Notes: generated by a model not told the origin, from the letters alone. A stretch of DNA of 64,000 bases from Candidatus Pacearchaeota archaeon (GCA_017608235.1 JAFCGI010000001.1:1423-65422); one strand, 5' to 3'. Positions 5,458 through 64,000 are shown, counted from the stretch's first letter. Numbers and translations are program-made.

Positions 5458-6147
5458 TTAAGTTCTTAATTCACAAATATCAAAATATGGTTTTAATAAT
5501 TTTATAAATTGTCTAAGTTCTTCTTCTGTGTATGCGCTTTCACTTCTATATTCTGGATTTAGTGTTTTAATTGATCTGAATTGCTGTAAATAGTATGCTT
5601 TTGATCCTTTAATCCATTCTGCAATAGATAATAAATCTTGTTTGGTTATTAGTTTTGGCAAAATTGTTGTTCTGAATTCATAATCTTTGCTTGAGTTTCG
5701 TATTATATCTATTGTTTTTTGTATATTTTCTACTTGAACTTTTGTGTTTGCTACTAAATCATATTTTTCTGGTGGTGCTTTTATGTCCATTGCTATATAA
5801 TCTACTAGATTTTCAGTTATCATAGTTTGAATTACCTTTGGATTTGTTCCATTTGTATCTAACTTAACTAAAAAACCCAGATCTTTGAGTTTGAATGCAA
5901 AATCTGTAAGATCTTTTTGAAGAGTTGGTTCTCCACCTGTGATGCAAACACCATCAATTAATTTTTTTCTTGAAATAAGATGGTTAAAAATTTCTTCTTC
6001 ATTAATTTTTTGTAGATCTCTATGATTTATTAATTCAGGATTATGGCAATAATGACATCTAAAATTACAATCTACTGTAAATATTACAGAAGCTATCTTT
6101 TTTGGATAGTCTATTAGAGATGTTTTTTGCCATCCCTTTATTATCAT
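5458..6147 (-). CDS. nrdG: Anaerobic ribonucleotide reductase activating protein (radical SAM)
   Basis: It has the radical-SAM motif CNFRCHYCHNPE and GVCITGGEPTLQ. It overlaps nrdD by 4 nt. Confidence 0.85.
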   Translation of the reverse strand: MIIKGWQKTSLIDYPKKIASVIFTVDCNFRCHYCHNPELINHRDLQKINEEEIFNHLISRKKLIDGVCITGGEPTLQKDLTDFAFKLKDLGFLVKLDTNGTNPKVIQTMITENLVDYIAMDIKAPPEKYDLVANTKVQVENIQKTIDIIRNSSKDYEFRTTILPKLITKQDLLSIAEWIKGSKAYYLQQFRSIKTLNPEYRSESAYTEEELRQFIKLLKPYFDICELRT

Positions 6148-11445: not shown

Positions 11446-12165
11446 TTATGCTTGTGTTTCAGATAATATATGTTCTATAAGTAACTCATATTCTTCTTTT
11501 TCTAATTCTGGGTCACCGTTTTCTCCATCATATTCGTGTCCTGAGCCTACTCTGAAATATTTACAGCCAAATACAAATGTAGGAATTGTTCCTTGCGGAT
11601 TAAATTCTTTATATATTGCTAGTTCTGTATCTGGTATTTCATCCTCAATATCATCAGTTAATTCATTATCATTTTCATCTAGCTGCCAATGATATACTTT
11701 TATATCTCCATTATCTATATATGGTTGAATTGCTTCATGGAATGGAGTCTTAACCCAGTTACAATGCATACACCATGTTGTTGAAAATAATCTAACTATT
11801 GGTTTTCCATCACTAGTTTTACAAATCTCTGCATCTGGAATTTCTAAGAAAGGATTTCCTTGTTCTGTAGATATTCCTTCTATATTTATTGGTACTGCTT
11901 CTGCTGTTGCATCCCCTGTAATTTCATTATCTTCAAGATTACCTGAAGGAGTAGTATCTTGATTTTGTGTTTCTTCTGATTTAGAAAAAACATCTATGCC
12001 TAATCCAAATCCGCTAGTTACCAACGATAATACTAATAAAATTCCTAGAATCACTGATATTATTCTCCATAGCTTAAATTTGTCTATCTCTATTTTTGTT
12101 GATGATTTATGTATTTCTGTGTTTTTCTCTGAAACTTCTCCTTCATCGTGTTTGTGTTCATCCAT
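11446..12165 (-). CDS. Membrane-anchored thioredoxin-fold thiol-disulfide oxidoreductase
   Basis: It has an N-terminal TM helix (WRIISVILGILLVLSLV) and a redox CxxC in the sequence TTWCMHCNW. Confidence 0.55.
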   Translation of the reverse strand: MDEHKHDEGEVSEKNTEIHKSSTKIEIDKFKLWRIISVILGILLVLSLVTSGFGLGIDVFSKSEETQNQDTTPSGNLEDNEITGDATAEAVPINIEGISTEQGNPFLEIPDAEICKTSDGKPIVRLFSTTWCMHCNWVKTPFHEAIQPYIDNGDIKVYHWQLDENDNELTDDIEDEIPDTELAIYKEFNPQGTIPTFVFGCKYFRVGSGHEYDGENGDPELEKEEYELLIEHILSETQA

Positions 12166-12213
12166 GTTAAAAAAATTAAAAAATATTAAGTTTATATATG
12201 TTTTTATATTAAA

Positions 12214-13149
12214 CTAACTAATAAGTTTCTTTTTGTTTTGATAGTTTTTGATGAATTGGCAAGATCTGCAAGTTTCTTGGGATGTTGGCTCTCCACAAGC
12301 CTTGCAAATATTTATTTTTTTATTTTTGAATTGTGTTCTTATTAGTTTAGCTATTTCATCTCCTGCTTTCGTTATTGAAAATTCTGCAGAAGGTCTAAAT
12401 TTTAGAATATCATTCATTATTATATCTGTATTAAATCTTAGACTTCCTATTCTGCAAGCACAAGGTTTTGGGAAATGCTTGATTTTCTTTAATTTTACAT
12501 AAAGTTTGACTTCTCTTTCAGGAATGTTTCTTAAAATCTTTATTCTCTGGACAAATTCTCTTCTTTTTGGAAGAGATTTTGGTCCTAAATGAGTGAATGT
12601 TTTTAGTTCTCCTCTTAATAAATTCATTAAATATGATTGTGCTTCATCTGTCAGATTGTGACCTGTAGCTAGTTTTGTGGCCTTTATTTCTTTTGCTTTC
12701 TTATTTAGAATATTTCTTCTTAGTACACCACAAACAGAGCAAGGATTTCCTCCTGATTTAGCAAGAATTTTTCCTATGTCTTTAACATCAAGTCCAAATT
12801 CTTTCTTAAAACTTAGATGATAGAATTCTATCCCTAGATCTCTTGCTATTTGTTTTGCTATCTTATAACTTTGTTTTGCATCTTTATCTCCTCTGTTTAC
12901 ATATGCAGCAAATACTTTGATATTTCTTGGTTTAGCATACCTTGCGAGATAGTTTAGAGTTAATGCTGAATCTTTTCCTGCAGATAAAGCTACTAGTATC
13001 TTATCTTTTTTTGAAATTAATTTGTTTGTTCTTATAGTTTTGGATATTCTTCTTTCAATTATCTTACAGAAGCAGGAATTACATACTGTTTTTCCTAAAT
13101 AATCTAGTTTTATTTTTGCATTTGTGCTTTTACAATTTACGCAATCCAT
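12214..13149 (-). CDS. tRNA 2-thiolation ATP-pyrophosphatase of the TtuA/NcsA (TtcA) family
   Basis: It has a PP-loop (LVALSAGKDS) and N- and C-terminal CxxC Zn and Fe-S ligands (CVNC, CNSC, CSVCG, CKAC, CRSC). Confidence 0.8.
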   Translation of the reverse strand: MDCVNCKSTNAKIKLDYLGKTVCNSCFCKIIERRISKTIRTNKLISKKDKILVALSAGKDSALTLNYLARYAKPRNIKVFAAYVNRGDKDAKQSYKIAKQIARDLGIEFYHLSFKKEFGLDVKDIGKILAKSGGNPCSVCGVLRRNILNKKAKEIKATKLATGHNLTDEAQSYLMNLLRGELKTFTHLGPKSLPKRREFVQRIKILRNIPEREVKLYVKLKKIKHFPKPCACRIGSLRFNTDIIMNDILKFRPSAEFSITKAGDEIAKLIRTQFKNKKINICKACGEPTSQETCRSCQFIKNYQNKKKLIS

Positions 13150-13299
13150 TGTGATCTATGGATTTCTAGTGTTTATAAAATTAAGCTTTTAAATAAATAG
13201 CATTATTATGCACAAAAATTAAATATTTTTTAGAAAAAGTTAAAAATAGGCAGTATAATAGTGTAAAAATCAAAAAAAGACTTTTTGAGAGGTGTTAAA

Positions 13300-13734
13300 A
13301 TGGAAGATGAAGAAAATAAGCAAGAAGCTGTGCAAGAATCTGAAGAATCAAATGATATTGAAAAATCAAATGATACTGGAGAAAATTTAGATGAGGATAA
13401 TGGTTTGCCATTTCCTAGAGCAAGAGTTGTAAATATAATTAAAAATGAGATTGGAAGAGACAAACAAATCAGAAGCGAAGTGAAAGAAGCAATAAATATT
13501 TGGCTAGGAGATTTGCTAAAGAGAATAGCTAGAGAGATGGGAGATACTCAGTATGCATCTATAGGTATAGCTGATTTTCAGAGAGCAACTAAACCTTATG
13601 ACATGATTAATGATATTGTTAAGGATGAAGAAAGACTCATTTTAAGCACAGAGAAATTAAAGAGTGATTCAGATCATATTAGCAGAGAGCTAAAAAGATT
13701 TTTTGAAGTAATAACTGGTGAAAAAAGGGAATAA
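13300..13734 (+). CDS. Histone-fold DNA-binding protein (archaeal histone / NF-Y-like) with acidic N-terminal and C-terminal extensions
   Basis: The segment LPFPRARVVNIIKNEIGRDKQIRSEVKEAINIWLGDLLKRIAREMG aligns to archaeal HMf-type histones (LPIAPIGRIIK...). I set the start at the first ATG at 13300, because the ORF-track start is a TTG. Confidence 0.45.
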   Translation: MEDEENKQEAVQESEESNDIEKSNDTGENLDEDNGLPFPRARVVNIIKNEIGRDKQIRSEVKEAINIWLGDLLKRIAREMGDTQYASIGIADFQRATKPYDMINDIVKDEERLILSTEKLKSDSDHISRELKRFFEVITGEKRE

Positions 13735-13742
13735 TAAATACA

Positions 13743-16244
13743 GTGGCTATAAGAGCAAATATTGAAAATAAGGAAAAAATTTGCTTTTTTCCTTTAGATA
13801 TTGATTACGAGACTTTAAAGTCTGGTGAGGCTCAGATAAGAATATTTGGAGTAACTCGCGATAAGAAAAGGATTGCTGTTTTAGACAAAAAAGCATTACC
13901 TTATTTCTTAATTATGCCTAAGAAAGGAACCAATATTGATTATTTTCTTAAAAAATTAAAAACATTAGAAGTTAGAAGCGAAGCTAAATTAATTAAGATA
14001 AAAAATGTTATAATTGAAAGTAGGAATTATTTAGGAGAAAAAGTTTCTATAATCAAAGTATTTGTAAGCCATCCTTCACATATAAAATTGATAAGGAAGG
14101 TTGTACAAGATTTTAAGGAAGTTGAAGATACAAAAGAATTTGATATTAATTTTTATAAAAGATATTTATTGGATAGGGAAGTTGTTCCTTGTGTTTTTTG
14201 TTGTGTTGAAGGTAAAATTGTTAATAGGCAAGATTTAGATGTTGATATAGTTGTTGAGGCTAGTAAGATTAAGCAATATAGCCAGGATCTTGTATCTGAT
14301 CTTAAAATATTAGCTTTTGATATTGAAACTTTGTTCAAGGGTGCAGCTTCTAATGCTAAACATGATGCAATAATTATGTGTTCTTTTTATGGTAGGGGTT
14401 TAAAGAAAGTAATAACTTGGAAGAAATATAAAGATGCTCCATATTATATGAAGTTTGTTGATGGTGAGCTTGAATTAATTGAGGAATTTAAAAAAATAAT
14501 AAAAGAATATAAGCCAGATATTTTAGTAAGTTATAATGGGGACCAATTTGATCTTCCATATATTAGAGAACGCGCTGAAAAATATAAAATTAAATTAGAT
14601 CTTGGATTAGATTTCTCTGAAATAGATCTAAGAAGGAAAGGAATAGCCAGTGCTGCTAAGATAAAAGGTGTGGTGCATTTAGATATGTATGTGTTTATAC
14701 ATAATATTCTTAGAGAGAATCTTGATACTGAAAGGTATGACTTAGATTCTGTTTCTGCTGAGATTCTAGGATTAGATGCTAGAAAAAGATATTTTGATTT
14801 TAGAAAACTTAATGAGATTTGGAGTATCGGGCTGAAAGAAGATTTAGAAAATTTATCTGCATATAATTTAAGAGATTCTGAACTAACATATAAAATTTGT
14901 GAAAAAATACTCCCTACAGAATTGCAATTAGTTAAGCTAATTAGTTTGCCTTTATTTGACATAAATAGGCTAACATATGGTCAGCTTGTAGAATGGTTTT
15001 TGATGAATAATGCAAGTAAGACTGGTAAAATATCTCCCAACAGGCCTTGGTTAGAAATAATTAGAAAACGAAGAAAACATACATTTGAAGGTGGGTTTGT
15101 TAAGGAACCTAAACCTGGTTTTTATAAAAATATTTTTGTATTTGATTTTAGGAGCTTATATCCTAGTATTATAGCTTCACATAATATTGGCTTGGAATCT
15201 TTTAATTGTGAATGCTGTCAATATAAAGGTGGCTATAATCTAGAAGATAATAAAATTTGGTTTTGTTCAAAGAAAGAAGGATTTATTCCTGGATTGGTTA
15301 AGAGTATTATTGAGCGTAGAAGAAGAGTCAAGAGCATTTTAAATAAGACTAGTAAGTCTGATCCTTCATATGCAGTTTTAAATTCCAGACAATATAGCTT
15401 GAAAATATTAGCAAATTCTTTTTATGGTTATTTGGGATTTCCTGCGTCAAGATGGTATTCTTTAGACTGTGCTAGAGCAGTTACTTGGTTTGGGAGAAAA
15501 TATATACAAGAAGTAATAAAAGAGGCTGAGAAATTTGGTTTTAATGTGCTTTATGGTGATACTGATTCTATATTTTTGTTATTGGGAAATAAAAAAAAGA
15601 AAAATATTCCTGAGTTTTTGAAAATAATTAATTCTATATTACCTAGTCCTATGGAATTAGAATATCAAGGATTTTATTCTTCTGGAATCTTTATTGGAAA
15701 AAAAGGTGATAGAATTGGTGCCAAAAAAAGATATGCTCTTTTAGCAGAGGATGGAGATATTATTTTAAGAGGTGTTGAAGCCATAAGAGGGGATTGGTCT
15801 AAAATAGCAAAGGATACTCAGAGGCAAATTATTGAAATGGTGTTAAAAGATGGGGAGGCAAAAAGAGCTATAAAATATTTGCAAATGGTGATTAATAAAA
15901 TAGATAAACGAGATGTTAGTTTGGATGATCTTTCTATTAAAACTAAATTAACTAAAAATCTTAGCGAGTATAAATCTAGAGGACCACATGTTGCTGCCGC
16001 AAGCATAGCAAAAGATAAAGGTTATGATGTATTTGCAGGATTTGTTGTTGATTATATTGTGGGAGAAGGTGATGGAAAGATAGGTGACAAAGTTATACTT
16101 ACTGAAGATGCTGGTATTGAAGACTATGATAAAGAATATTATATAAATAATCAAATAATAAGATCTGTGTATAAGATCTTAGAAATTTTTGGATATACAG
16201 AAGAAAAACTTAAAGAAGGACAAACTACACTAAGTTCATGGTAA
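13743..16244 (+). CDS. polB: Family B DNA polymerase (PolB)
   Basis: Exo I is LAFDIETL and Exo II is YNGDQFDLPYI. Pol motif B is KILANSFYGYLG and motif C is VLYGDTDS. There is no intein. The apparent start is a GTG. Confidence 0.95.
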   Translation: MAIRANIENKEKICFFPLDIDYETLKSGEAQIRIFGVTRDKKRIAVLDKKALPYFLIMPKKGTNIDYFLKKLKTLEVRSEAKLIKIKNVIIESRNYLGEKVSIIKVFVSHPSHIKLIRKVVQDFKEVEDTKEFDINFYKRYLLDREVVPCVFCCVEGKIVNRQDLDVDIVVEASKIKQYSQDLVSDLKILAFDIETLFKGAASNAKHDAIIMCSFYGRGLKKVITWKKYKDAPYYMKFVDGELELIEEFKKIIKEYKPDILVSYNGDQFDLPYIRERAEKYKIKLDLGLDFSEIDLRRKGIASAAKIKGVVHLDMYVFIHNILRENLDTERYDLDSVSAEILGLDARKRYFDFRKLNEIWSIGLKEDLENLSAYNLRDSELTYKICEKILPTELQLVKLISLPLFDINRLTYGQLVEWFLMNNASKTGKISPNRPWLEIIRKRRKHTFEGGFVKEPKPGFYKNIFVFDFRSLYPSIIASHNIGLESFNCECCQYKGGYNLEDNKIWFCSKKEGFIPGLVKSIIERRRRVKSILNKTSKSDPSYAVLNSRQYSLKILANSFYGYLGFPASRWYSLDCARAVTWFGRKYIQEVIKEAEKFGFNVLYGDTDSIFLLLGNKKKKNIPEFLKIINSILPSPMELEYQGFYSSGIFIGKKGDRIGAKKRYALLAEDGDIILRGVEAIRGDWSKIAKDTQRQIIEMVLKDGEAKRAIKYLQMVINKIDKRDVSLDDLSIKTKLTKNLSEYKSRGPHVAAASIAKDKGYDVFAGFVVDYIVGEGDGKIGDKVILTEDAGIEDYDKEYYINNQIIRSVYKILEIFGYTEEKLKEGQTTLSSW

Positions 16245-17143: not shown

Positions 17144-19438
17144 TTAACCCATATATTCTGGTATATTTGTATGTGAGCCTTTTGCAGCTTGCATTGCTTT
17201 AGCATATCTTATGAGATCTTGTTTGCTAAGCGATGGTTTAATATTCTCTAAAGCCTCTTCAAAATTTTTCTTTGTAACTTCTTTTGAATTTATGTTATCT
17301 CTCAAAGCCATCATTGCTGCTTCCCTACATACTGCTTCTATGTCTGCTCCAGAATAATTTTCTGTTTTCTTAGCTAAATATTTTAGAGTTATTGACTTTG
17401 CTAAAGGCATTTCTTTTGTGTGTACTTTTAATATCTCTAATCTTGATTCTTCATTTGGAGGGATAGCCATTATATGCCTATCTAATCTTCCAGGACGCAA
17501 TAATGCTGGATCTACTAGTTCTGGACGGTTAGTTGCTGCAATTACTACTACATCATTTAATTCTTCTAAACCATCCATTTCTGTTAGTATTTGATTTACT
17601 ACTTTTTCTGTAACATTGCTTCCTGTATCTTGCCCCCTTGTTGATGCTATAGAATCTAGCTCATCAAAGAAAATTATTGCTGGTGATACTTGCCTTGCTT
17701 TTTTGAATATTTCTCTGATTGCTTTTTCTGATTCTCCAACCCATTTGCTAAAGATCTCTGGTCCTTTGACGTTGATGAAGTTTGCTTCTGATTCTGTAGC
17801 TACTGCTTTAGCTAGCAAAGTCTTACCACAGCCAGGAGGGCCATATAGTAAGATACCTCGAGGAGGTCTTATTCCCATTCTTTTGAATATTTCTGGTTTT
17901 TTAAGTGGCCATTCAACTGCTTCTATTAATTCTTGTTTTGGTTTATCCAAGCCGCCGATGTCTTGCCATTTAATTTTTGGTTTTTCAATTAATACTTCTC
18001 TCATTGCAGATGGTCTTACTAGCTTTAGTCCTTCTTTGAAATCTTGTTTTTTTACTTCTAATCTCTTTAGAATATCTTCTGATACTCTTTCTTCTTTTTC
18101 CTTATCTAGTTTAAATAAAGGCAAAACTCTTCTAAGTACACTCATTGCTGCTTCCTTAGTTAAACCTTCTATATCTGCACCTACAAAACCATGAGTGACT
18201 TCTGCTAATTCTTTTAGATTTACATCTTTAGCTATTGGCATATTTCTAGTATGGATTTTTAGAATTTCTAATCTAGATTTTTTATTTGGTACACCTATCT
18301 CAATTTCTCTATCGAATCTTCCACCACGTCTTAGAGCAGGATCTAATGCATTTTGTCTATTTGTGGCAGCGATTACTATTACTTTTCCACGAGATTTTAA
18401 GCCATCCATTAGTGCGAGCAGTTGAGCTACTACTCTTCTTTCTACTTCTCCATAAGATTCTTCCCTTTTTGGAGCAATTGCATCAATTTCATCAATGAAA
18501 ATTATTGATGGTGAAGTGTGTTCTGCTTCTTCAAAGATTTCTCTAAGTTTTTTTTCTGCTTCTCCAACAAACTTACTCATGATTTCTGGTCCGTTTAATA
18601 GAATAAAATTAGCGTTAGATTCTGTGGCTACTGCCTTTGCTAAAAGGGTTTTACCTGTTCCTGGTGGGCCAAATAGTAAAACTCCTTTCGGAGGTTGTAC
18701 ACCAAGTCTATCAAATATCTCTGGATGTTTTAATGGTATTTCAATCATTTCTCTGATTTTTTTGATTTCTTCATCTAATCCGCCAATATCTTCATAAGTT
18801 ACATCTGGAATTCTTTCTTCTTTTAGTTCAACTGCTTCTGATCTTACATCAATTCTTGTATCTTCTGTTATTAGTACAGCTTCTTTCGGATTTGTGGATA
18901 CAACTACAAATTTAATATCTGAAAATCCTAGTCCTGAGAATCCCATATCTTCTGACATCATATTAAATATCTCTTCAAATGGACTTCCAGAAAAAGTTCT
19001 TTGTCTTCTTCTAGCTCCGCCAAGAGATATTACATCACCTTTTACTATTGCTCTTCCTAGTAATGCTCTCTGAAATGTTGATGGATGAGCCTGAACCATT
19101 AAACCTTTTTGTGCTGGAGCAATTGTTATTGTTTTAGCAGGTTTAACTTCTGCTTTTTTTATTTTTATAAATTCACCAATACTTGTTTTAGCATTTCTTC
19201 TTGTAAGACCATCCATCCTGATAATAGATAATCCTACATCTGCTGGAAATGCACGGTCAACAATAGCTACTGTTTTTCTTTCACCTTCTATTTCTACAAT
19301 AGAACCAGCTTGAATTCCAACTTTTTTCATTAACTGAGAATCAATTCTAACAATTCCTTTGTTAACATCATCTTGAGCTGCTTCTGCAACTTTTAATCTT
19401 ATTTCTTTTGATTCTTTTTCTTTCATGAGTCTCACCAT
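17144..19438 (-). CDS. cdc48: CDC48/VCP-like AAA+ ATPase (double AAA domain)
   Basis: It has a Cdc48 N-domain and two Walker A motifs (GPPGTGKT and GPPGCGKT). Two SRH/arginine-finger regions are present. Confidence 0.95.
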
Positions 19439-52849: not shown

Positions 52850-54496
52850 ATGAAATCTTCTAAAGAAATCTTAGATAGTGCAGAATCTTTTTTGGAGACT
52901 GCTGATAGTTATGTTATTTTAGATAAGCCAAGAGTTAATTTACTTAGTTATGATCCATCCATACAAAGTTTATCTTTAAATTATATTAGAAGTAAGTATC
53001 ATTTCTTTTTGAAAACTGTGGAACGGTCTAGAGAACAGCAACTAGATGAAAGTTTATTTAATCAATTTTTAGCAGATATTGCAGTATCAAGAGGAGATCT
53101 TGCTGTATTTGATAGAGGCCATATTCATTTTAAACTTAATTGTACTAGAGTTGGTACGAATGATATATTAAGGCATTATAGTATGAGATTTTTTCAGACA
53201 GGTCAAAGAAAGCAAATAGATTTGAATGTTCTTGATTCTGAAGATATATCTCAAAGTATTAGATATTTTTTGCCGCCTGAATGGGTTAAAGCTAGAGATC
53301 TAGCAGAGGAATTTAATTCTGCTATGAGTTATGTTGCACATTTAGTTAAACATGCAATAGATTTAGGAATGCCATCAGATCAAGCAAGATATATTATTCC
53401 TAATGCAGCAACTACTACTTTGGAAATGAGTGGTAGTTTGAGAAGCTTTTTTTCTTATGTTGGTTTAAGAGCTTGTGAACAAGCGCAGTTTGAGAATCAA
53501 TTTTTATCAGAGAAAGTGGCTAAGAAGCTCAAGGAAATATTGCCAGACCTTACCCAAAAACTTGGACCTAGATGCGTGTATGATCCTAGATGCAGAGAAG
53601 GAAAAAATTCTTGCGGTAAAATAAAAGAGAAAAGAGATTTGTTTGTTGGAGATGGTTCTGGTTTAGAGTATGTTATTAAGAGAGCTCAGATGCAAATAGA
53701 TAGTATTGATGAAATAGAATTTAATAATCAAGGATTTTTAAGCAATCTTTCTGATGCTTATAACGAGTATGTAAGTCTTGAGGAATCTAATGAGTTGCCA
53801 TTAGTTGAACTTGAAGCAAGATTTAATTCTGGAATATCTAATTTAGAAGAGTTTACAGCGCAGCTTGCGAAAAATACATTTAAAAGGTATACTGGAAAGA
53901 CTTTTGCATCTGATGATAAATTAACTATTGAACAAGTAGCAAATATTTGTAGAAATATAGTTAAAGCAGGACATTATGGAGCATTAGGACATCAGCATCT
54001 TAGCTATGATACTAAGATTTCTAGAGTTATGCTCCAAAAATTTGCAAGGCATCATTCTTTAGTTTTGATGGCATCTAGCCAACATCATAGTATTCATGCT
54101 AATTTTGAATATATTATGCCACCAATGTGGGAAAAATTAGGATTAGGAACAGAATTCCATACTATTGTTAGGTATTTAAATAATCTTTATACTAGAGCTA
54201 TGGATGCAGGAATTCCAAGAGATCAAGCAAGATATTGTCTGCCTACTTGTGCTACAACAAATCTTATGATCTCAGCATCTCCAAGATCTTTATTTTCTTT
54301 AGCAGCTCAGAGGACTTGTCCAAGTAATAGTTGGGAGGAAAGAGAAATAGTTTCTATGATAGTAGATGATGCAAGAGAAAGATATTCAAATCTTTTTTAT
54401 TATCTAGGACCTAAGTGTTTACTAAAACTTTGTGGGGCTAAGTGTGAATATGAGGATGAGGTTAGGAATAAGTACTTAGTGGATGGCGATGAGTGA
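52850..54496 (+). CDS. Tandem-duplicated ThyX-fold protein (two fused flavin-dependent thymidylate synthase-like domains). The RHR/SxRY motifs are degenerate in both halves.
   Basis: Half 1 reads GMPSDQARYIIPNAATTTLEMSGSLRSFFSYVGLRACEQAQFENQ and half 2 reads GIPRDQARYCLPTCATTNLMISASPRSLFSLAAQRTC. Both align to the ThyX core ([45 protein letters not shown]). The RHR-like positions read RHYSMRFFQTGQRKQ in half 1 and RHHSLVLMASSQHHS in half 2. Confidence 0.65.
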   Translation: MKSSKEILDSAESFLETADSYVILDKPRVNLLSYDPSIQSLSLNYIRSKYHFFLKTVERSREQQLDESLFNQFLADIAVSRGDLAVFDRGHIHFKLNCTRVGTNDILRHYSMRFFQTGQRKQIDLNVLDSEDISQSIRYFLPPEWVKARDLAEEFNSAMSYVAHLVKHAIDLGMPSDQARYIIPNAATTTLEMSGSLRSFFSYVGLRACEQAQFENQFLSEKVAKKLKEILPDLTQKLGPRCVYDPRCREGKNSCGKIKEKRDLFVGDGSGLEYVIKRAQMQIDSIDEIEFNNQGFLSNLSDAYNEYVSLEESNELPLVELEARFNSGISNLEEFTAQLAKNTFKRYTGKTFASDDKLTIEQVANICRNIVKAGHYGALGHQHLSYDTKISRVMLQKFARHHSLVLMASSQHHSIHANFEYIMPPMWEKLGLGTEFHTIVRYLNNLYTRAMDAGIPRDQARYCLPTCATTNLMISASPRSLFSLAAQRTCPSNSWEEREIVSMIVDDARERYSNLFYYLGPKCLLKLCGAKCEYEDEVRNKYLVDGDE

Positions 54497-56575: not shown

Positions 56576-57346
56576 ATGATTACAAAAGCAGTTATTCCAG
56601 CAGCAGGCAGAGGAACAAGAGCAGGAGCAAGACATATTCCTAAGGAGATGTATCCTGTTGGAGATAATCAATATCCAATTATACAATATGTTGTTGAAGA
56701 ATTAATTCATTCAGGAATTGATGATATCTTAATAATTACTAGAACTGGTAAGAGAGTGATAGAAGATCATTTTAGTCAGCCTCCTGAAGATCTTGCTAGG
56801 TTAATTGAAGAAAATAATATTACTTTTTTTTATACTAATCAGGATGAGCCTAAAGGATTAGGGCATGCAGTATTGCTTGCGAGAAAATATATGGGAAATA
56901 GTCCTTTTATTTTAGCTTTGGGAGATGATATAGTTAAGTCTGAAACTCCTTGTGCTAGACAGTTAATTGATTTGTATAATTTTTATAGGGGTCCAGTTAT
57001 TGCTGTTGAAGAAGTTCCAGAAGAAAGAGTTAGCAGATATGGTATTATTTCTCCAGAAAAAATACGAGAGGGAGTGTATTTTATTAATGATTTGATAGAA
57101 AAGCCTGCTCAGGAGGATGCTCCATCGAGCCTTGCTGTTGTAGGAAGATATGCTCTAACTTCAGAGATATTTGATATACTTGCAGATACAAAGCCAGGAA
57201 TAAATAATGAGATACAGCTTACAGATGCTTTGCAAGTATTATGTAAGAGAAGGGCAATGTATGCTATTGAATATGAAGGACAGAGATTTGATGCTGGAGA
57301 TAGAGATGGGAGAATAGAAGCTGAGAAAGTGTTTAATAGCTTATGA
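56576..57346 (+). CDS. Sugar-1-phosphate nucleotidyltransferase, UTP-glucose-1-phosphate uridylyltransferase (GalU)-like
   Basis: The N-terminal AVIPAAGRGTR...IPKEMYPV matches the GalU signature AVIPAAGLGTR...IPKEMLP. Confidence 0.7.
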   Translation: MITKAVIPAAGRGTRAGARHIPKEMYPVGDNQYPIIQYVVEELIHSGIDDILIITRTGKRVIEDHFSQPPEDLARLIEENNITFFYTNQDEPKGLGHAVLLARKYMGNSPFILALGDDIVKSETPCARQLIDLYNFYRGPVIAVEEVPEERVSRYGIISPEKIREGVYFINDLIEKPAQEDAPSSLAVVGRYALTSEIFDILADTKPGINNEIQLTDALQVLCKRRAMYAIEYEGQRFDAGDRDGRIEAEKVFNSL

Positions 57347-57426
57347 TTAGTAAGTTTTTGTAAAAAGCAGTATATTGTGTTTTGAATGAAGACAAGTTTA
57401 TATATCTTTAGTATATCCACAATAAA

Positions 57427-59190
57427 ATGAATATTAAAGAAATTTTTAATCATAATAATAGGATTTTTGTGGTTGCAGAGATAGCTGGTGCGCATGATGG
57501 TTCTGTTGAAACCATGAAGAATTTAATTAAGGTTGCTTCTGATTCTGGTGTTAATGCTGTTAAATTTCAGATTTTTAGAGCAAATAAACTTGTGGTTAAA
57601 GATCATCCTAAGTATGCTTCTTTTAAACAGAAAGAATTTTCTAAAGAACAATGGCTAGACATTTCAGAATATGCTAAGAGTTTTGGCTTATCTATTTTTG
57701 CAGATGTTTTTGATAGAGAAAGTTTAGATATTGCAGAAGAATTTGGGGCAGAAGCGTATAAAATACATTCTAGCATAATTTCAGATGTTTTTTTACTTAG
57801 AGACATAGCTAAGACAAGAAAAACAATTTTATTGTCTGTTGGGGGGTCTAAATATATAGAGATAAAAAAAGCATTATCTATTTTTAAAGATAATAATAAG
57901 ATATTGGTTGCAGGATATCAGAATTTTCCAACTAAGATTGAGGATTCTAATCTTGCACTAATTGATTATTTGAAGAAAGAATTTAAGTGTCCTATAGGTT
58001 ATGCAGACCATTGTGATGCTGAGACAAGCATGGCTATGATTTTACCCCTTTTAGCGGTTGTGAAGGGGGCTTGTTTAATAGAAAAACATATCACGCTTGA
58101 TCGATCTTCAAAAGGTACTGATTATTATTCTTCTTTAAACCCTTCTGAAATAAAAAATTTGGTTAAGAATATAATGGAAACTAGAAAGACAATTGGTAAG
58201 AGCAAACTTGATTCTTTTTCAGAAGATGAAGAAAAATATCGTCAAAATATGAAGAAATTTATAGTGTCTTTTAGGAATATTAGGAAAGGAGAGATTATTT
58301 CTTTGGATATGTTGGATTTTAAAAGAACTACAAAACTAGGATTATTACCAAATGAAGCAGACAAGTTAATTGGTAAACAAAGTATAAGAGATATTAAAGA
58401 AGATGAAATTATTAGTTTACAAGATGTAGAAAATAATGTTGCTATTCTTATTGCTGTTAGAATGAAATCTACAAGGCTGCCAAAGAAAGCATTACAAGTT
58501 ATCGAAGGACAAACTTTAATTGAGCATTTAATTGATAGAATGAAACAATGTAAACATGCAAATCATGTTATTTTATGTACATCTATACATCCAGATGACA
58601 GGATTTTGTTAGATATAGCTAAGAAGAAGGACATATTTTATTTTGTTGGTAATGAAAAAAATGTTATGAAGCGTTTTTTAGGTGCTGCTGAAAAGGTTAA
58701 AGCAGATATTATAGTTAGAGTTACAGGGGATAATCCACTTACTTCTCCATATTTTATTGATAGTGCAATAAAACACCATCTTAAGGCAGGAGCAGATTAT
58801 ACATATACTACTGATCTGCCCCAGGGAACTAAAGGAGAAGTTATTTCTGTTTCTGCTTTGAAAAAGGCACATGAATTGGCAGAGGACCCTAATTTTAGTG
58901 AATATATGACTTGGTATTTTACAGATAACCCAAATTTTTTTAAGATAGAAAAAATACTTATTGATGAAGATATGAAGAGGCCTAGTTATAGATTAACTGT
59001 TGATACTCCAGAAGATTTAGAATTAATTAAGAAAATATATGGAAAATTATATGAGCATGGACAGATTATTCCATTGAAAGCAGTTATTAAGTTTTTAGAT
59101 GAAAATCCAAATCTTTTGAAAATTAATGCAAATATTAAAAGCAAGGATGTTAAAGATAAAGTAAATGTAAGATTAAGATGGTTAAAATAA
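57427..59190 (+). CDS. Fusion protein: nonulosonic-acid synthase (NeuB/PseI/LegI family, with SAF domain) fused to a PF02348 cytidylyltransferase (SpsF/PseF-like CMP-sugar synthetase)
   Basis: Residues 1 to about 340 form a NeuB TIM barrel (VVAEIAGAHDGSVETMKNLIKVASDSGVNAVKFQ) with a SAF domain (RNIRKGEIISLDMLDFKR). Residues about 345 to 587 form the cytidylyltransferase (AILIAVRMKSTRLPKKAL..., VTGDNPL). Confidence 0.75.
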   Translation: MNIKEIFNHNNRIFVVAEIAGAHDGSVETMKNLIKVASDSGVNAVKFQIFRANKLVVKDHPKYASFKQKEFSKEQWLDISEYAKSFGLSIFADVFDRESLDIAEEFGAEAYKIHSSIISDVFLLRDIAKTRKTILLSVGGSKYIEIKKALSIFKDNNKILVAGYQNFPTKIEDSNLALIDYLKKEFKCPIGYADHCDAETSMAMILPLLAVVKGACLIEKHITLDRSSKGTDYYSSLNPSEIKNLVKNIMETRKTIGKSKLDSFSEDEEKYRQNMKKFIVSFRNIRKGEIISLDMLDFKRTTKLGLLPNEADKLIGKQSIRDIKEDEIISLQDVENNVAILIAVRMKSTRLPKKALQVIEGQTLIEHLIDRMKQCKHANHVILCTSIHPDDRILLDIAKKKDIFYFVGNEKNVMKRFLGAAEKVKADIIVRVTGDNPLTSPYFIDSAIKHHLKAGADYTYTTDLPQGTKGEVISVSALKKAHELAEDPNFSEYMTWYFTDNPNFFKIEKILIDEDMKRPSYRLTVDTPEDLELIKKIYGKLYEHGQIIPLKAVIKFLDENPNLLKINANIKSKDVKDKVNVRLRWLK

Positions 59191-60569
59191 CAGTATATAT
59201 AACATCTTATAATTATGGAAATTATTTAGATAAAGCAATAAAGAGTGTTCTTGATCAAACTTACCAGGATTTTGAATTATTGATTTTTGATGATGGATCT
59301 ACTGATAATACTAAAGAGATCCTAAAGAAATATGAGGATCATTCAAAGATTAAAATTATCTATCAAGAAAACAAAGGTATGCCTAAGACGTGTAATAGAG
59401 CTTTACAAATGTCTAATGGTGAATATATTATACGTTTAGATGCAGATGATTATTTTGATGAAAATATATTGTTAGTTCTTTCTAATGTTTTAGATATAAG
59501 ATCTAATGTATCTTTAGTATATCCAGATTATTATGAGATTGATTCTAGTGGAAATGTTATTGGATTAGTTAGAAGAAAAAAAATTGTTGAAGAAGCTAAT
59601 TTATTAGATCTTCCAGCACATGGTGCTGGTACTATGATTAGGAAAGACTGTTTAAAAGATCTAGGAGGATATAATGAGACTATTAGTTGCCAAGATGGTT
59701 ATGATTTATGGGTAAGATTTATTCAAAAATATAAGCCAGAGAATGTTAATCTGCCTTTGTTTTATTATAGAAAGCATTCTGATAGTTTAACAACAAATTC
59801 TAAAAAAATATTAGAAACAAGGAAAGATATTAAGAATAAATTTGTTGAAGATAATGGTGTAAAGAAGAAGACATGTATAATTATACCTATTAGAAGAAAA
59901 TCTGTAATATGTGAAAATCTTCCATTAAAGATTATTAATGGTAAGCGGCTAATGGAGTATGCTATTGATGAGGCTGTTAAGACTAGTGTGGATAAAGTTG
60001 TTGTGACTACAGAAGATGAAGTAATATCAGAAATTGCTAAATCTAAGGATATTAATGTAATTATGAGGCCTAAGGAGTTAGGAGAGTTTAATATTCCTAT
60101 AGAACCAACAATTTTATTTGTTTTAGAGCATCTTTCTAAGAAAGAACAGTTTGTTCCAGATATTGTAGGGGTTTTTTATATTACTTCTCCATTAATTAAG
60201 AGTAAACACCTTAGAGAGGCTATTAATACATTGATCATTTATGATGCTGATAGCGTGATTAGCGTTAAGGAAAATGCAAGGTTGCATTATATACATGATA
60301 AATTTGGATTAAAACCATTATTTAACAAGAGAGCTTTAAAACAAGAAAGAGATTTTTTATATGAAGAGAGTGGAGGATTTGTATTTTCCAAAAAAGATAT
60401 AATAAATAAAGAAAATATGGTTGGTAAAAGTATTAGCCATGTTATTTTGACTGATGAAGAAGGTATAGATATTGAAGATAAATTCACTTACTGGCTTGTT
60501 GAACAAATATTAAAAAATAGATCTGTGATTGAAAAAATGAATAATCAAAAAATAGCTAGAGGTTACTAG
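59178..60569 (+). CDS. Fusion protein: GT2 family glycosyltransferase fused to a PF02348 acylneuraminate-type cytidylyltransferase
   Basis: The N-terminal GT2 region has ITSYNYGNYLDKAIKSVLDQTY, FDDGSTD, and a DxD motif (RLDADD). The C-terminal cytidylyltransferase region reads CIIIPIRRKS...LPLKIINGKRLMEYAID. Confidence 0.7.
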   Translation: MVKITVYITSYNYGNYLDKAIKSVLDQTYQDFELLIFDDGSTDNTKEILKKYEDHSKIKIIYQENKGMPKTCNRALQMSNGEYIIRLDADDYFDENILLVLSNVLDIRSNVSLVYPDYYEIDSSGNVIGLVRRKKIVEEANLLDLPAHGAGTMIRKDCLKDLGGYNETISCQDGYDLWVRFIQKYKPENVNLPLFYYRKHSDSLTTNSKKILETRKDIKNKFVEDNGVKKKTCIIIPIRRKSVICENLPLKIINGKRLMEYAIDEAVKTSVDKVVVTTEDEVISEIAKSKDINVIMRPKELGEFNIPIEPTILFVLEHLSKKEQFVPDIVGVFYITSPLIKSKHLREAINTLIIYDADSVISVKENARLHYIHDKFGLKPLFNKRALKQERDFLYEESGGFVFSKKDIINKENMVGKSISHVILTDEEGIDIEDKFTYWLVEQILKNRSVIEKMNNQKIARGY

Positions 60570-60570
60570 T

Positions 60571-61590
60571 ATGATTCAAGATTATATAGAGAGAGATGGA
60601 GCATTTATTATTGCAGAAATAGGTGGAAATCATGAAGGAGATTTTGAGTATGCTAAAAAATTACTTTTAGATGTTGCTAAATCTGGTGCGCATGCTGTTA
60701 AATTTCAAATATATACTGGAGATAAGATTGTTAGTAAGGTAGAGAATCCTGGTAGGAATGAGCACTTTAAGAAATTTGAATTATCTGATGAACAGTTTAT
60801 TGAGCTAGCTAGACTGGCCAAAGAGAATAATATTTTATTTATGGCCTCTTTTTGGGATATTGATGCAATTGAGAGATTTGATCCATATATAGAAATTAAT
60901 AAGATTGGATCTGGAGATTTAACAAATTATCTTATATTGGAGATTCTTGCGAAGAAGAATAAACCACTTATTTTATCTACAGCTATGTCAACAATTGAAG
61001 AGATTAAGGATGCTATTGAATTTATTAATAAATCAAATCCAGTGTTGGTTAAAGAAAATAAGCTTTTTTTAATGCATTGTGTTGCTATGTATGGAGATCC
61101 TAAAGGAGAGTATGCTAATCTTTTATCTATTAAAAAACTACAAGATGAATTTCCAAATATTATGATTGGTTATTCAGATCATACTAAAGGAATTTATGCT
61201 TGTGAGTTAGCTATTGCTATGGGAGCAAGAATTATTGAAAAGCATTTTACAGATAATAAATCCAGAGAATTTAGGGATCATCATGTTTCTGCAGATTTAG
61301 AAGATATGAAATTGTTAATTGAAAAAGCTAAACAAGTGAATGTTTTACTTGGTAAATATGAGAAGGAGCCTATAAGCGCTGTGGAAACAGTTGAAAGAAT
61401 AAAGGAATTTAGGAAGGCAGTTTATCTAAAAAAAGATGTGCCTGCTGGTACGATTTTAACTGAGGATATTTTAATTACATTAAGGCCTAATAAAGGCATA
61501 GATGCTCGAAAGTTTTATGAAGTTGTAGGTAAAAAACTGAATAAAAACAAGAGTGCTTTTGAAGCTATTTATAAGAGTGATTTAGAATGA
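60571..61590 (+). CDS. NeuB-family nonulosonic acid synthase (N-acetylneuraminate/pseudaminate/legionaminate synthase), paralog 2
   Basis: It has FIIAEIGGNHEGDFEYAKKLLLDVAKSGAHAVKFQ and a C-terminal SAF domain (KDVPAGTILTEDIL). Confidence 0.85.
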   Translation: MIQDYIERDGAFIIAEIGGNHEGDFEYAKKLLLDVAKSGAHAVKFQIYTGDKIVSKVENPGRNEHFKKFELSDEQFIELARLAKENNILFMASFWDIDAIERFDPYIEINKIGSGDLTNYLILEILAKKNKPLILSTAMSTIEEIKDAIEFINKSNPVLVKENKLFLMHCVAMYGDPKGEYANLLSIKKLQDEFPNIMIGYSDHTKGIYACELAIAMGARIIEKHFTDNKSREFRDHHVSADLEDMKLLIEKAKQVNVLLGKYEKEPISAVETVERIKEFRKAVYLKKDVPAGTILTEDILITLRPNKGIDARKFYEVVGKKLNKNKSAFEAIYKSDLE

Positions 61591-61895
61591 AATCAATTAA
61601 ACTACATCTTGGCTGTGATTTATATTATAAAGCTATAGAGATAGGCAAGCTTAGTGGACCAGAGGATTTTTTTAATAAATTTAAAAATTCTGATCTTATT
61701 TTAGTTAATTTTATGAATATGTCTGACGAAGATGCATATAAGTTGTTATTAGAGGCTAATACAGAATTGATACTAGATCATTATAAAAATACTAATGGTA
61801 ATATAGAAGAGGCAAATAGATTGATACAACAATTTGCTGATCTTTATTCAGGAAAAATAATTAATTTTAGAGGATCTAGACATTATGATAAATAA
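61587..61895 (+). CDS. Hypothetical protein (102 aa) within the nonulosonic acid cluster
   Basis: It is an ORF with start and stop overlaps to its neighbours, which suggests it is co-transcribed. I saw no motifs. Confidence 0.3.
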   Translation: MKSIKLHLGCDLYYKAIEIGKLSGPEDFFNKFKNSDLILVNFMNMSDEDAYKLLLEANTELILDHYKNTNGNIEEANRLIQQFADLYSGKIINFRGSRHYDK

Positions 61896-62598
61896 GAATA
61901 ATTCCAAAATTATTGCGGTAGTTCCTGCTCGTGGAGGTAGTAAGGGAATTCCTAGAAAAAATATTAAATTATTAAAAGGCAAGCCGCTAATAACATATAC
62001 AATAGAAGCAGCAAAAAAGTCAAAATTAATTGATCGTATTATTGTTTCTACAGATGATGTAGAAATTGCAAATATTGCGAAAGAGTGTGGAGCAGAGATA
62101 CCTTTTCTTCGTCCAGAAGAATTAGCAAAAGATGATATAACTGATTTACCAGTATTGCAGCATGTTCTTAAATGGTTGATAGTTAATGAAGATTGCAATC
62201 CAGATTTAATGATATACCTTAGACCTACTGCACCCATTCGAGATCCAGAAGATATTGATAGGGCTGTTAAATTACTGATGGATAGTTCTGCAGATTCTTT
62301 AAGAAGTGTTAGTCTTGTTAAAGAACATCCATATTGGATGTTTAAGCTAGATGAGAACAATGTACTTGAGGCATTTAATAAAGACAATTCGATTAGAGAA
62401 TATCCTAGAAGGCAGCTTTTGCCAGACTTATATATAATAAATGGTAATATAGATATAGTAAGATCTAGGAATATAACTGATAATAAACTTTATGGTAAAA
62501 AAGTAATTGGTTTTAATATAGACCATGAAAAAGCTATTGATATAGATTCTCTTTTAGATTTTAAACTAGCGGAGTTTATATTAGGTAAAAATGATTAA
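61885..62598 (+). CDS. neuA: Acylneuraminate cytidylyltransferase (CMP-nonulosonic acid synthetase, NeuA-type)
   Basis: It has IIAVVPARGGSKGIPRKNIKLLKGKPLI and the other PF02348 motifs. Confidence 0.85.
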   Translation: MINKNNSKIIAVVPARGGSKGIPRKNIKLLKGKPLITYTIEAAKKSKLIDRIIVSTDDVEIANIAKECGAEIPFLRPEELAKDDITDLPVLQHVLKWLIVNEDCNPDLMIYLRPTAPIRDPEDIDRAVKLLMDSSADSLRSVSLVKEHPYWMFKLDENNVLEAFNKDNSIREYPRRQLLPDLYIINGNIDIVRSRNITDNKLYGKKVIGFNIDHEKAIDIDSLLDFKLAEFILGKND

Positions 62599-63643
62599 AA
62601 TTTCAGATAAATTTGTAGGTAAAGGACAACCTTGTTTTATTATAGCTGAAGCAGGAGTTAACCATAATGGGGATATAGAATTAGCTAAAAAACTAATTTT
62701 AGAGGCTGCTAGATCTGGTGCAGATGCTATAAAATTTCAGACTTTTTCTACAGATAATTTGATTGTTAGAGATGCGCCTAAGGCACAATATCAGAAGCAA
62801 ACAACATTGACTGAAGAATCCCAGTATGAAATGTTAAAAAAATTGGAATTAAATAAAGGACAATATAAAGAGCTTGTTGATTATGCTAATCACAATAAAA
62901 TAATCTTTCTCTCAACACCATATGATGAAGATAGTGTGGATCTTTTATATAGCTTAAATGTGCCAGCTTATAAAATTGCTTCTTGCGATTTAACTAATAT
63001 TCCTTTAATAGATCATATTGCTGATAAGAATAAACCTATTATTATTTCAACTGGTATGGCAACAATGGATGAAGTTGAAACTGCAGTATTACATATTAAA
63101 AAATATCATGATCATATTGTTTTATTACATTGTACTACCGAATATCCTACAAAATTAAAAGATGTTAATCTTCAGGCAATGATTGCTTTAAGAGAAAAGT
63201 TTGACTTACCTATAGGTTACTCAGATCATACAGATAGTTTTTTAGTTTCTTTAGCTGCAGTTTCATTAGGCGCGAATATTATTGAGAAACATTTTACGCT
63301 CGATAAATCTCTTTGGGGTCCAGACCATACGGCATCTGCAGATGTTGCAGAACTAGCAGCTTTAGTAAAATCAATACGGGATGTAGAATTATCTTTAGGA
63401 TCTTTTGATAAAAAGCCTACTAAAATTGAGTTAAAAAATAAAAAAGTTATGAGAAGAAGTATTTGTGCAAATAGAGATATTAAAGAAGGCGAGATTATTA
63501 GTAAGGATATGATATCTATTAAAAGACCAGGCATTGGATTAGAACCGAAGCATATCGCAGCGATTATAGGTAAAAAAATAAATAAAGATATAGCTAAAGA
63601 TAATTTTTTAACTAAAGATTATTTTAGGGAGAGAGAATTATGA
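62591..63643 (+). CDS. NeuB-family nonulosonic acid synthase, paralog 3
   Basis: It has FIIAEAGVNHNGDIELAKKLILEAARSGADAIKFQ and a SAF domain (RDIKEGEIISKDMISIKRPG). Confidence 0.85.
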   Translation: MIKISDKFVGKGQPCFIIAEAGVNHNGDIELAKKLILEAARSGADAIKFQTFSTDNLIVRDAPKAQYQKQTTLTEESQYEMLKKLELNKGQYKELVDYANHNKIIFLSTPYDEDSVDLLYSLNVPAYKIASCDLTNIPLIDHIADKNKPIIISTGMATMDEVETAVLHIKKYHDHIVLLHCTTEYPTKLKDVNLQAMIALREKFDLPIGYSDHTDSFLVSLAAVSLGANIIEKHFTLDKSLWGPDHTASADVAELAALVKSIRDVELSLGSFDKKPTKIELKNKKVMRRSICANRDIKEGEIISKDMISIKRPGIGLEPKHIAAIIGKKINKDIAKDNFLTKDYFREREL

Positions 63644-64000
63644 ATATTATTTTAATTGGTGCGGGCGGACAAGCACGTGTAATAATAGATATTTTACAAT
63701 ATGATAAAAACAATAAATTGGTTGGAATTATAGATAAGCAATTTTCTGAAGGTGAAATGATTAATAATGTACCTATATTAGGAACTTTTTCAGATTTACC
63801 TAAAGTTATTGAAGAATATGCAGTTACTGGAGCTATAATTGGGGTGGGAGATAATAGGCTTAGAGCAGAATATTATAATTTGCTTAAGAGTAAAGGATTA
63901 GAAATGATAAATGCTGTTCATCCTAGTGTAAGTATAGCAAATAATGTAGTATTAGGGGATGGTAATGTTATTTGTAGAAAAGCGGTTATATGCACAAATG
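63640..64000 (+). CDS. NeuD/PglD-like sugar O/N-acetyltransferase (hexapeptide-repeat). Partial: it continues beyond the window end.
   Basis: The N-terminal Rossmann-like region IILIGAGGQARVIIDIL is typical of the NeuD/PglD family. No stop falls within the window. Confidence 0.65.
   Translation, partial: MNIILIGAGGQARVIIDILQYDKNNKLVGIIDKQFSEGEMINNVPILGTFSDLPKVIEEYAVTGAIIGVGDNRLRAEYYNLLKSKGLEMINAVHPSVSIANNVVLGDGNVICRKAVICTN

Follow-up and report, generated by a model that had tools for sequence, protein, structure and literature searches.

Gene content and organization of the operon

The DNA analysed here, hereafter called the window, is a stretch of 64,000 nucleotides (nt) from Candidatus Pacearchaeota archaeon (GCA_017608235.1, JAFCGI010000001.1:1423-65422). 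Its last part, from position 56576 to the end, carries eight consecutive open reading frames (ORFs) on the + strand, and their domain content supports an operon for the biosynthesis of nonulosonic-acid-type, sialic-acid-like sugars. Two of the genes are fusions, denoted here by a tilde: a NeuB-type synthase joined to a cytidylyltransferase domain (NeuB1~CTPa), and a family 2 glycosyltransferase joined to another cytidylyltransferase-like domain (GT2~CTPb). We are highly confident that this is a nonulosonate-type operon with genuine fusions, and only slightly less confident that there is a conserved cassette, made up of NeuB1~CTPa, GT2~CTPb and a synthase. The genes and features of the locus are the following.

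56576..57346, + strand: GalU-like sugar-1-phosphate nucleotidyltransferase, 256 amino acids (aa); PF00483, E 1e-25
57397..57404, + strand: archaeal TATA-box-like element TTTATATA, read by eye, about 23-30 nt 5' of the NeuB1~CTPa start codon
57427..58431, + strand: NeuB1, with a NeuB TIM-barrel (aa 33-259) and a SAF domain (aa 283-335); N-terminal part of a 587-aa fusion (57427-59190)
58435..59190, + strand: CTPa, SpsF/COG1861-type cytidylyltransferase domain (PF02348), joined to NeuB1 without a linker
59178..59852, + strand: GT2 glycosyltransferase domain (PF00535), aa 1-225 of a 463-aa fusion (59178-60569)
59868..60569, + strand: CTPb, cytidylyltransferase-like domain with a degenerate catalytic set; PF02348, E 1.4e-9
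60571..61590, + strand: NeuB2, second divergent NeuB+SAF synthase, 339 aa; NeuB E 5.1e-60, SAF E 3.7e-5
61587..61895, + strand: 102-aa ORF, resembling the C-terminus of B12-binding radical SAM enzymes (92 matches)
61885..62598, + strand: NeuA-type nonulosonate synthetase forming the cytidine monophosphate (CMP) derivative, 237 aa; PF02348, E 8.2e-25
62591..63643, + strand: NeuB3, canonical NeuB/LegI-type nonulosonate synthase, 350 aa; NeuB E 1e-94, SAF E 7.3e-11
63640..64000, + strand: NeuD/PglD-type sugar N-acetyltransferase, first 120 aa, cut by the window end; PglD_N, E 1.2e-13

The GalU-like gene is separated from the NeuB1~CTPa gene by a gap of 80 nt, and from 57427 on the genes either overlap by 4-13 nt or lie 1 nt apart: the start of GT2~CTPb overlaps the end of NeuB1~CTPa by 13 nt, NeuB2 begins two bases past the GT2~CTPb stop codon, NeuB3 overlaps NeuA by 8 nt and the NeuD/PglD gene overlaps NeuB3 by 4 nt. 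Because the genes overlap or abut, we read them as one operon; the TTTATATA element is its possible promoter. The host is an archaeon because the window encodes the archaeal markers PolD DP1/DP2, PolB, Cdc48 and LonB, and because the nearest homologues bear Woesearchaeota or Nanoarchaeota names. Look-ups of NeuB3 and of the fusion protein gave no identical record, and scans of genomes and metagenomes yielded only distant relatives, with identities of 54% at most.

A first-pass annotation of the same DNA had described a nonulosonic-acid cluster with three NeuB+SAF proteins, three PF02348 domains (NeuB-fused, GT2-fused and stand-alone NeuA), one GalU-like gene and one NeuD-like gene, interrupted by the end of the window. 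This inventory is confirmed in full: the three NeuB domains are found on the + strand of 56576-64000 with Pfam E-values from 2.6e-53 to 1e-94, all three PF02348 domains score above the 22.6-bit cut-off, the GalU-like and NeuD-like matches are not attributable to chance, and the NeuD/PglD gene does stop at 64000. The 102-aa ORF at 61587-61895 is an addition to that list.

Three synthase families

Pfam scores across the three window synthases are 181-317 bits for NeuB and 24.6-42.9 bits for SAF, the NeuB1 fusion giving E-values of 2.6e-53 for NeuB, 3.6e-7 for SAF and 9.5e-33 for CTP_transf_3. Only NeuB3, with 452.8 bits, passes the 399.65-bit cut-off of the NeuB_NnaB model (TIGR03569), which NeuB1 (229.9) and NeuB2 (256.9) fail. 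An assignment of any of them as PseI was rejected from the scores with TIGR03586 (187.7, 203.4 and 323.5 bits for NeuB1, NeuB2 and NeuB3), which are all under the cut-off of 340.25 and, in each of the three proteins, lower than the NeuB_NnaB score.

In an alignment of 276 sequences, the NeuB1, NeuB2 and NeuB3 families are each monophyletic, and none of the four solved reference enzymes included falls inside any of them. The divergence between the three is comparable to that of NeuB versus PseI. Recent paralogy was ruled out by the mutual identity of 25-36% together with the separate monophyly, and the "threefold redundancy" that had been suggested for this locus is wrong: as judged from the alignment, the three synthases are old lineages, separate ancient subfamilies rather than redundant copies. 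The NeuB2 family is as well conserved as those of the two fusions, with 49-72% identity across its best 120 matches, and the best match of NeuB1 in the Protein Data Bank (PDB) is 6ncs. We take 6ncs to be a Leptospira protein, like 6oew and 6p61, the structures matched by CTPa and GT2 (see below).

Residues are numbered as in Neisseria meningitidis NeuB, with positions verified on the PDB alignment; their roles we assume to be those known from the structural work on 1XUZ. All three window proteins have the core E25/K53/Q55/K129/H215/E234/H236/D247/R314, which at least 95% of each family also keep. T110, S132, S154, N184 and S213 we take to be the contacts with phosphoenolpyruvate (PEP). NeuB1 bears the signature T110D, N184Q and S213A; its position 134 holds D or I instead of E, and S132 and S154 vary across the family; the signature of NeuB2 is E134D and N184A; NeuB3 is near canonical at the five contact positions and has all the catalytic residues. 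R314 of the SAF domain is presumably the residue that binds the N-acetyl group of the substrate.

The two fusion proteins

Archaeal and bacterial proteins of about 585 aa, grouped in more than 100 clusters, have the NeuB1~CTPa architecture (NeuB+CTP_transf_3). CTPa matches PF02348 with 114.3 bits (E 9.5e-33) and has 6oew as best PDB match. At least 97 of 105 relatives retain its motifs AVRxxSTRLPxK, TGD and RLTxDxxxD, and the subfamily models that it matches are those of KdsB rather than PseF. With its catalytic residues kept, CTPa looks active, as an intact SpsF-type cytidylyltransferase. The synthase half takes part in other fusions as well, namely NeuB3-like~NeuB1~CTPa, CTPa~NeuB1~CTPa and TIM-barrel~NeuB1~CTPa, and it is not the sole synthase in any of the nine loci in which it was seen.

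A search with GT2~CTPb gave 2,880 matches; the best 120 are full-length, share 46-70% identity and bear the names Parcubacteria, Omnitrophica, Nitrospirae, Chloroflexota, Thermodesulfovibrionales and Woesearchaeota. A search of plasmids yielded only a distant Azospirillum GT2~CTP-like homologue with 33% identity. The GT2 domain (PF00535, E 1e-28, 100.8 bits) has as best PDB matches 6p61 and a domain of K4CP chondroitin synthase (residues 376-589), and its motifs DDGSxD, RLDADD (the DxD) and QDGYDLW (the catalytic base) are near-invariant in 119 relatives. In glycosyltransferases, a DxD motif is typical of enzymes using nucleoside-diphosphate sugars rather than CMP-sugars.

CTPb is recognized by PF02348 with 38.5 bits (E 1.4e-9). 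We take R12 and K21 (N. meningitidis numbering) to be the catalytic residues of such domains, D209/D211 to be the magnesium-binding pair and the R71 equivalent to be the arginine contacting cytosine. This last position is invariant among the 119 relatives. The D209 equivalent is K in 41, D in 28, H in 12, Q in 12 and R in 10 of them, and the D211 equivalent is D in 67, N in 20 and E in 17; all four of R12, K21, D209 and D211 are kept in only 5 of the 119, and at these positions the window has R, K, D and E. Sequence change is also faster in CTPb than in GT2, with mean pairwise identities of 0.45 and 0.58, respectively. From the residue patterns we propose that CTPb would serve to bind cytidine nucleotides and would not act as an enzyme.

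A cassette shared with bacteria and DPANN archaea

The fusions are not rare, being part of a cassette in many bacteria and DPANN archaea. Carriers belong to the DPANN archaea, the Parcubacteria, the Chloroflexota and the Thermodesulfovibrionales; in Thermodesulfovibrionales the cassette sits within a flagellin-glycosylation island. Contigs of the same size recur across the match lists of NeuB1~CTPa, GT2~CTPb and NeuB2, pointing to co-location. The fusions had been called unusual, a description that holds against textbook pathways and fails for metagenomes, where they are common. No description of the cassette was found in the literature searched, a search that was limited in scope.

The fusion state differs between genomes (loci of relatives are numbered with an L). 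Every part is a separate gene in L056; CTPa, GT2~CTPb and NeuB2 follow one another in L057; a CTPa~GT2~CTPb triple fusion occurs in L058, and a cupin~NeuB2 fusion is also found among the relatives. In Woesearchaeota RBG_13_36_6 (L052, 11707-13047) an intact-looking GT2~CTPb, missing from the recorded gene calls, lies right after NeuB1~CTPa. A TARA contig (L053) runs from NeuB1~CTPa to GT2~CTPb, NeuB2 and NeuA, and then to legionaminic-type genes. Two bacterial metagenome-assembled genomes (L059, L060) have a radical SAM-SPASM gene, NeuB1~CTPa, GT2~CTPb, NeuB and NeuA adjoining fliD, motAB and a giant Maf-domain protein; this region is a flagellin glycosylation island. Several relatives' clusters include AsnB-like or CoA-ligase-like genes, and relatives hold a UDP-sugar (uridine diphosphate sugar) dehydrogenase and an epimerase at the position of the GalU-like gene.

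A Parcubacteria locus (L063) keeps CTPa and GT2~CTPb, followed by a DAHP/KDO8P-family synthase in place of NeuB2, and a Chloroflexota locus has GT2~CTPb, NeuB and a NeuA-like gene beside a Wzm/Wzt transporter, without NeuB1. L063 and L064 have one synthase each, yet both CTPb and an intact cytidylyltransferase are present. The invariant core therefore consists of GT2~CTPb together with one intact cytidylyltransferase and a PEP-condensing synthase, whose type varies; NeuB1 is optional. The one-to-one pairing of synthases and cytidylyltransferases implied by the first-pass annotation fails on the same single-synthase relatives.

Two of these loci show further peculiarities. In the marine L053, positions 11818-14576 between NeuB1~CTPa and GT2~CTPb are occupied by three ATP-citrate lyase/succinyl-CoA synthetase-like genes and a short citrate-synthase-like gene, which hints at coenzyme A activation of an acid in the pathway. 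The enzyme at the NeuB2 position of L063 (10405-11229) is a divergent class I-beta DAHP-synthase-like protein that scores 218.8 bits, under the cut-off, and it looks like a non-orthologous replacement of the PEP-condensing step.

The remaining genes of the operon

The stand-alone NeuA carries the canonical PARGGSKGIPRKN and DID motifs and keeps the R12, K21, D209 and D211 equivalents. It scores 88.3 bits with PF02348 and 175.6 bits with the PseF model (cut-off 205.7), and it is 37% identical to the CMP-N-acetylneuraminic acid synthetase of N. meningitidis. The N-terminus of NeuD/PglD matches the NeuD/PglB/VioB family (E 2.9e-26) and is 54% identical to a PglD-like gene of the DPANN locus L058, where, at 17562-19382 on the - strand, a 606-aa NeuA~NeuB3-like fusion is followed by that gene in the same order as in the window. 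A xylose-isomerase-like TIM-barrel gene comes after both, and by analogy the gene order of L058 may indicate what lies just past the window end. The best NCBIfam match of the GalU-like protein is TIGR01099 GalU, with 269.7 bits under a cut-off of 326.8, and this protein probably supplies a UDP-hexose.

The 102-aa ORF aligns with the C-terminal part, of about 100 residues, of B12-binding radical SAM enzymes of about 480 aa, the long ones among its 92 matches, which bear B12-binding and Radical_SAM domains. Full-length versions are found in the relatives' clusters. To judge from this alignment, the ORF is probably a remnant of a lost tailoring gene, although it may alternatively be a small stand-alone protein.

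Proposed function

We propose, with a probability of about 0.5, that the locus is the first part of an archaeal operon making CMP-activated sialic-acid-like surface sugars, nonulosonic or other ulosonic acids, with decoration by CTPb-GT2. The operon would join a conventional unit B (NeuB3, NeuA and NeuD/PglD) with the cassette as unit A (NeuB1~CTPa, GT2~CTPb and NeuB2). In unit B, the NeuD/PglD-type acetyltransferase would act upstream on the sugar precursor, NeuB3 would condense PEP with the N-acetylated sugar, and NeuA would activate the product with cytidine triphosphate. CTPa and NeuA would be the working CMP-sugar synthetases, and CTPb, no longer catalysing activation, would hold a cytidine-linked ulosonic acid. 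Onto the CMP-ulosonate held by CTPb, GT2 would then transfer a hexose or hexuronate; the donor would be a UDP-sugar, for which the GalU-like gene is a potential source. The product would be a decorated CMP-sugar, later moved onto surface proteins by a final transferase that in bacteria would be of Maf type. The GT2~CTPb step is proposed because of the residue patterns, the DxD motif and the single-synthase loci with both CTPb and an intact cytidylyltransferase; this specific mechanism we regard as tentative. NeuB1 could be an accessory module of the synthetase or, alternatively, the synthase for a second acid.

Several observations weigh against this proposal. The pathway is incomplete within the window because no homologue of a dehydratase, aminotransferase, 2-epimerase, flippase or transferase is found in 1-64000; beyond synthases and synthetases, the start of the acetyltransferase gene is all that the window holds of a legionaminic or pseudaminic acid pathway. 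The domain content, the genuine and recurrent fusions, the conserved cassette and the residue patterns are observed; we infer which substrates are used, in what order the steps run, what CTPb does and what the final acceptor is, and this applies to every unit A substrate because no unit A enzyme has been characterised. The synthase beside GT2~CTPb varies between NeuB2, NeuB3-like and DAHP-synthase-like proteins, which fits a generic role of GT2~CTPb and identifies none in particular. No established case in which a CMP-linked sugar is glycosylated is known to us. Lastly, CTPb may be an unusual active cytidylyltransferase, a conceivable case because Arg is retained at the R12 position in 93 and Lys or Arg at the K21 position in 91 of the 119 relatives.

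A different account, which we consider rather improbable, takes the three synthases and three synthetases as pairs making three nine-carbon sugars, with NeuB1~CTPa channelling its product to activation and GT2~CTPb activating and transferring the product of NeuB2. The count of three NeuB and three PF02348 domains and the catalytic core kept in all three synthases suit it, as do the Leptospira clusters in which multiple synthases and synthetases make several nonulosonic acids (PMC3438082). It is weakened by the degenerate catalytic set of CTPb, by the DxD motif of GT2, unlike CMP-sugar transferases (PMC7439481), by the two CTP-type domains of single-synthase loci and by NeuB1 being nowhere the sole synthase where it is seen. 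The "coupled activation and transfer" that the first-pass annotation ascribed to GT2~CTPb is unlikely because CTPb has lost the magnesium-binding Asp pair, with the full catalytic set in only 5 of 119 relatives, and GT2 keeps its DxD; it is conceivable but less likely than CTPb as a holding domain. NeuB1 may instead be an accessory, product-binding or modifying module of an SpsF/PseF-type synthetase, so that the operon would yield one or two sugars, which we think unlikely; the evidence in its favour is the following. On a Bacillus cereus plasmid, a 585-aa NeuB1~CTPa with the family signatures stands at the PseF position of a canonical pseudaminic acid operon that has its own PseI, and most Bacillus relatives retain SAF~CTPa alone at that position. 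In L065, a canonical synthase is fused ahead of NeuB1~CTPa, which provides the only CTP domain of that Pse-type cluster. The serines taken to contact the phosphate of PEP show poor conservation among NeuB1 relatives, but H215 and H236 (metal ligands), E25, K53, K129, E234 and D247 are kept in at least 105 of 110 relatives and the family has strongly conserved motifs of its own, all of which suggests catalysis. As a separate observation on the Bacillus plasmid (L062, 11998-13755), its record annotates only the C-terminal part of the 585-aa ORF.

It is also rather improbable, in our opinion, that NeuB1, NeuB2 or both make a 3-deoxy-2-ulosonic acid of other than nine carbons, either Kdo- or Kdn-like or a short acid placed as a substituent on a nonulosonate. 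The synthase at the NeuB2 position of the Parcubacteria locus, the match of CTPa to KdsB rather than PseF models and the AsnB-like or CoA-ligase-like genes of several relatives would agree with such a product. The Treponema denticola flagellin nonulosonate that bears a 3-deoxy-hexonoyl group (PMC13439194) might be a parallel, its link to the cassette being of our own making. Conversely, R314, presumably the binder of the N-acetyl group of the substrate, is kept in all the NeuB families. Hardly any credit is given to the two other explanations raised at first, that the fusions are assembly or frameshift artefacts or that the NeuB-like genes are KDO8P or DAHP synthases. Artefacts were ruled out by the recurrence of both fusion architectures in hundreds of independent contigs from several databases. 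The KDO8P/DAHP identity has in its favour only weak, partial DAHP-synthase matches (E 1e-5 to 1e-7, 24-30 bits) and was rejected against NeuB Pfam E-values of 1e-53 to 1e-94; the three proteins stay in the NeuB family.

Comparison with known systems

The sps operon of Bacillus subtilis has the same three enzyme types in one operon: a GT2 (SpsA), a synthase (SpsE) and a cytidylyltransferase (SpsF). CTPa is of the same SpsF/COG1861 type, and both pathways include a GT2 with DxD. The window differs in that the SpsE-like and SpsF-like parts are fused, GT2 bears an extra degenerate cytidylyltransferase-like domain, and there are three synthases. SpsE itself (PDB 1vli) belongs to neither the NeuB1 nor the NeuB2 clade, being 29-32% identical to them and 40% identical to the NeuB3 group. 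The use of legionaminic acid by B. subtilis requires SpsF, and the DxD-containing SpsA is not the legionaminic acid transferase (PMC7439481).

The pseudaminic acid operon of the Bacillus cereus group has a NeuB1~CTPa orthologue or SAF~CTPa at the PseF position, together with PseB, PseC, PseG, PseH and PseI; unlike the window, it is without GT2~CTPb and NeuB2. Li et al. reportedly carried out biochemical work on a Bacillus thuringiensis cytidylyltransferase in 2015. The Maf flagellin glycosylation islands of the Campylobacter, Helicobacter and Aeromonas type resemble L059 and L060, where the four-gene block adjoins fliD, motAB and a Maf-domain protein. Among characterised islands of this kind we know of none with GT2~CTPb, within the limited scope of our literature search, and neither a Maf gene nor flagellar genes are found in the archaeal window.

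The nonulosonic acid cluster of Leptospira shares with the window the multiple synthases and synthetases and a NeuB fusion, with different fusion partners; it contains several synthases and CMP-synthetases and a NeuB~phosphatase fusion, and several nonulosonic acids have been detected (PMC3438082). In archaea, Halorubrum sp. PV6 has a characterised legionaminic acid pathway of NeuB/NeuA type that feeds surface-protein glycans (PMC6137143); as described, it is a single canonical pathway and shows none of these fusions. For unusual chemistry, the nonulosonate on T. denticola flagellin bears a 2-methoxy-4,5,6-trihydroxy-hexanoyl group, that is, a 3-deoxy-hexonoyl group (PMC13439194), and unusual CMP-ulosonates are known from Magnetospirillum (bioRxiv 10.64898/2026.04.20.719630). 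Any link by analogy from either chemistry to the cassette would be speculative.

Other features of the window

From about 34 kb onward, the window has a strongly positive guanine-cytosine skew up to its end, matching the long run of + strand genes. No tRNA, rRNA or member of other Rfam families was found by Rfam and tRNA scans of the 64 kb. On the - strand, a 701-aa pyridine-nucleotide-disulphide oxidoreductase (1577-3682) is split by an intein with a LAGLIDADG homing-endonuclease domain, and an anaerobic ribonucleotide reductase NrdD (6144-8456) has an N-terminal NrdR-like zinc ribbon besides its ATP-cone. On the + strand, a 548-aa protein (52850-54496), encoded among genes of nucleotide metabolism such as those for thymidylate kinase and dCMP (deoxycytidine monophosphate) deaminase, has two matched ThyX (Thy1) stretches; these matches suggest a thymidylate synthase that was duplicated in tandem and fused.

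Biological meaning

Sialic-acid-like sugars shape the recognition of microbes by hosts, phages and partner cells, and their transferases and tailoring steps are poorly known. The two fusions are fixed points of a cassette found across very distant lineages, which makes the cassette a well-defined biochemical target. In the widest form of our proposal, which is a long shot, GT2~CTPb would be a widespread, undescribed enzyme class in which a pseudo-enzyme domain derived from a cytidylyltransferase presents a CMP-ulosonate to its fused glycosyltransferase; another ulosonic acid or substituent, of a second and non-canonical kind, would come from the NeuB1 family, and the route would be common to DPANN archaea, bacteria of the candidate phyla radiation and flagellated bacteria. 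If true, cells would build nucleotide-activated, pre-decorated sialic-acid-like donors. The cassette may also account for part of the unassigned diversity of CMP-sugars detected by mass spectrometry, for instance in Magnetospirillum. It is biologically plausible that DPANN archaea, whose way of life requires cell-cell contact with hosts, invest heavily in such surface sugars.

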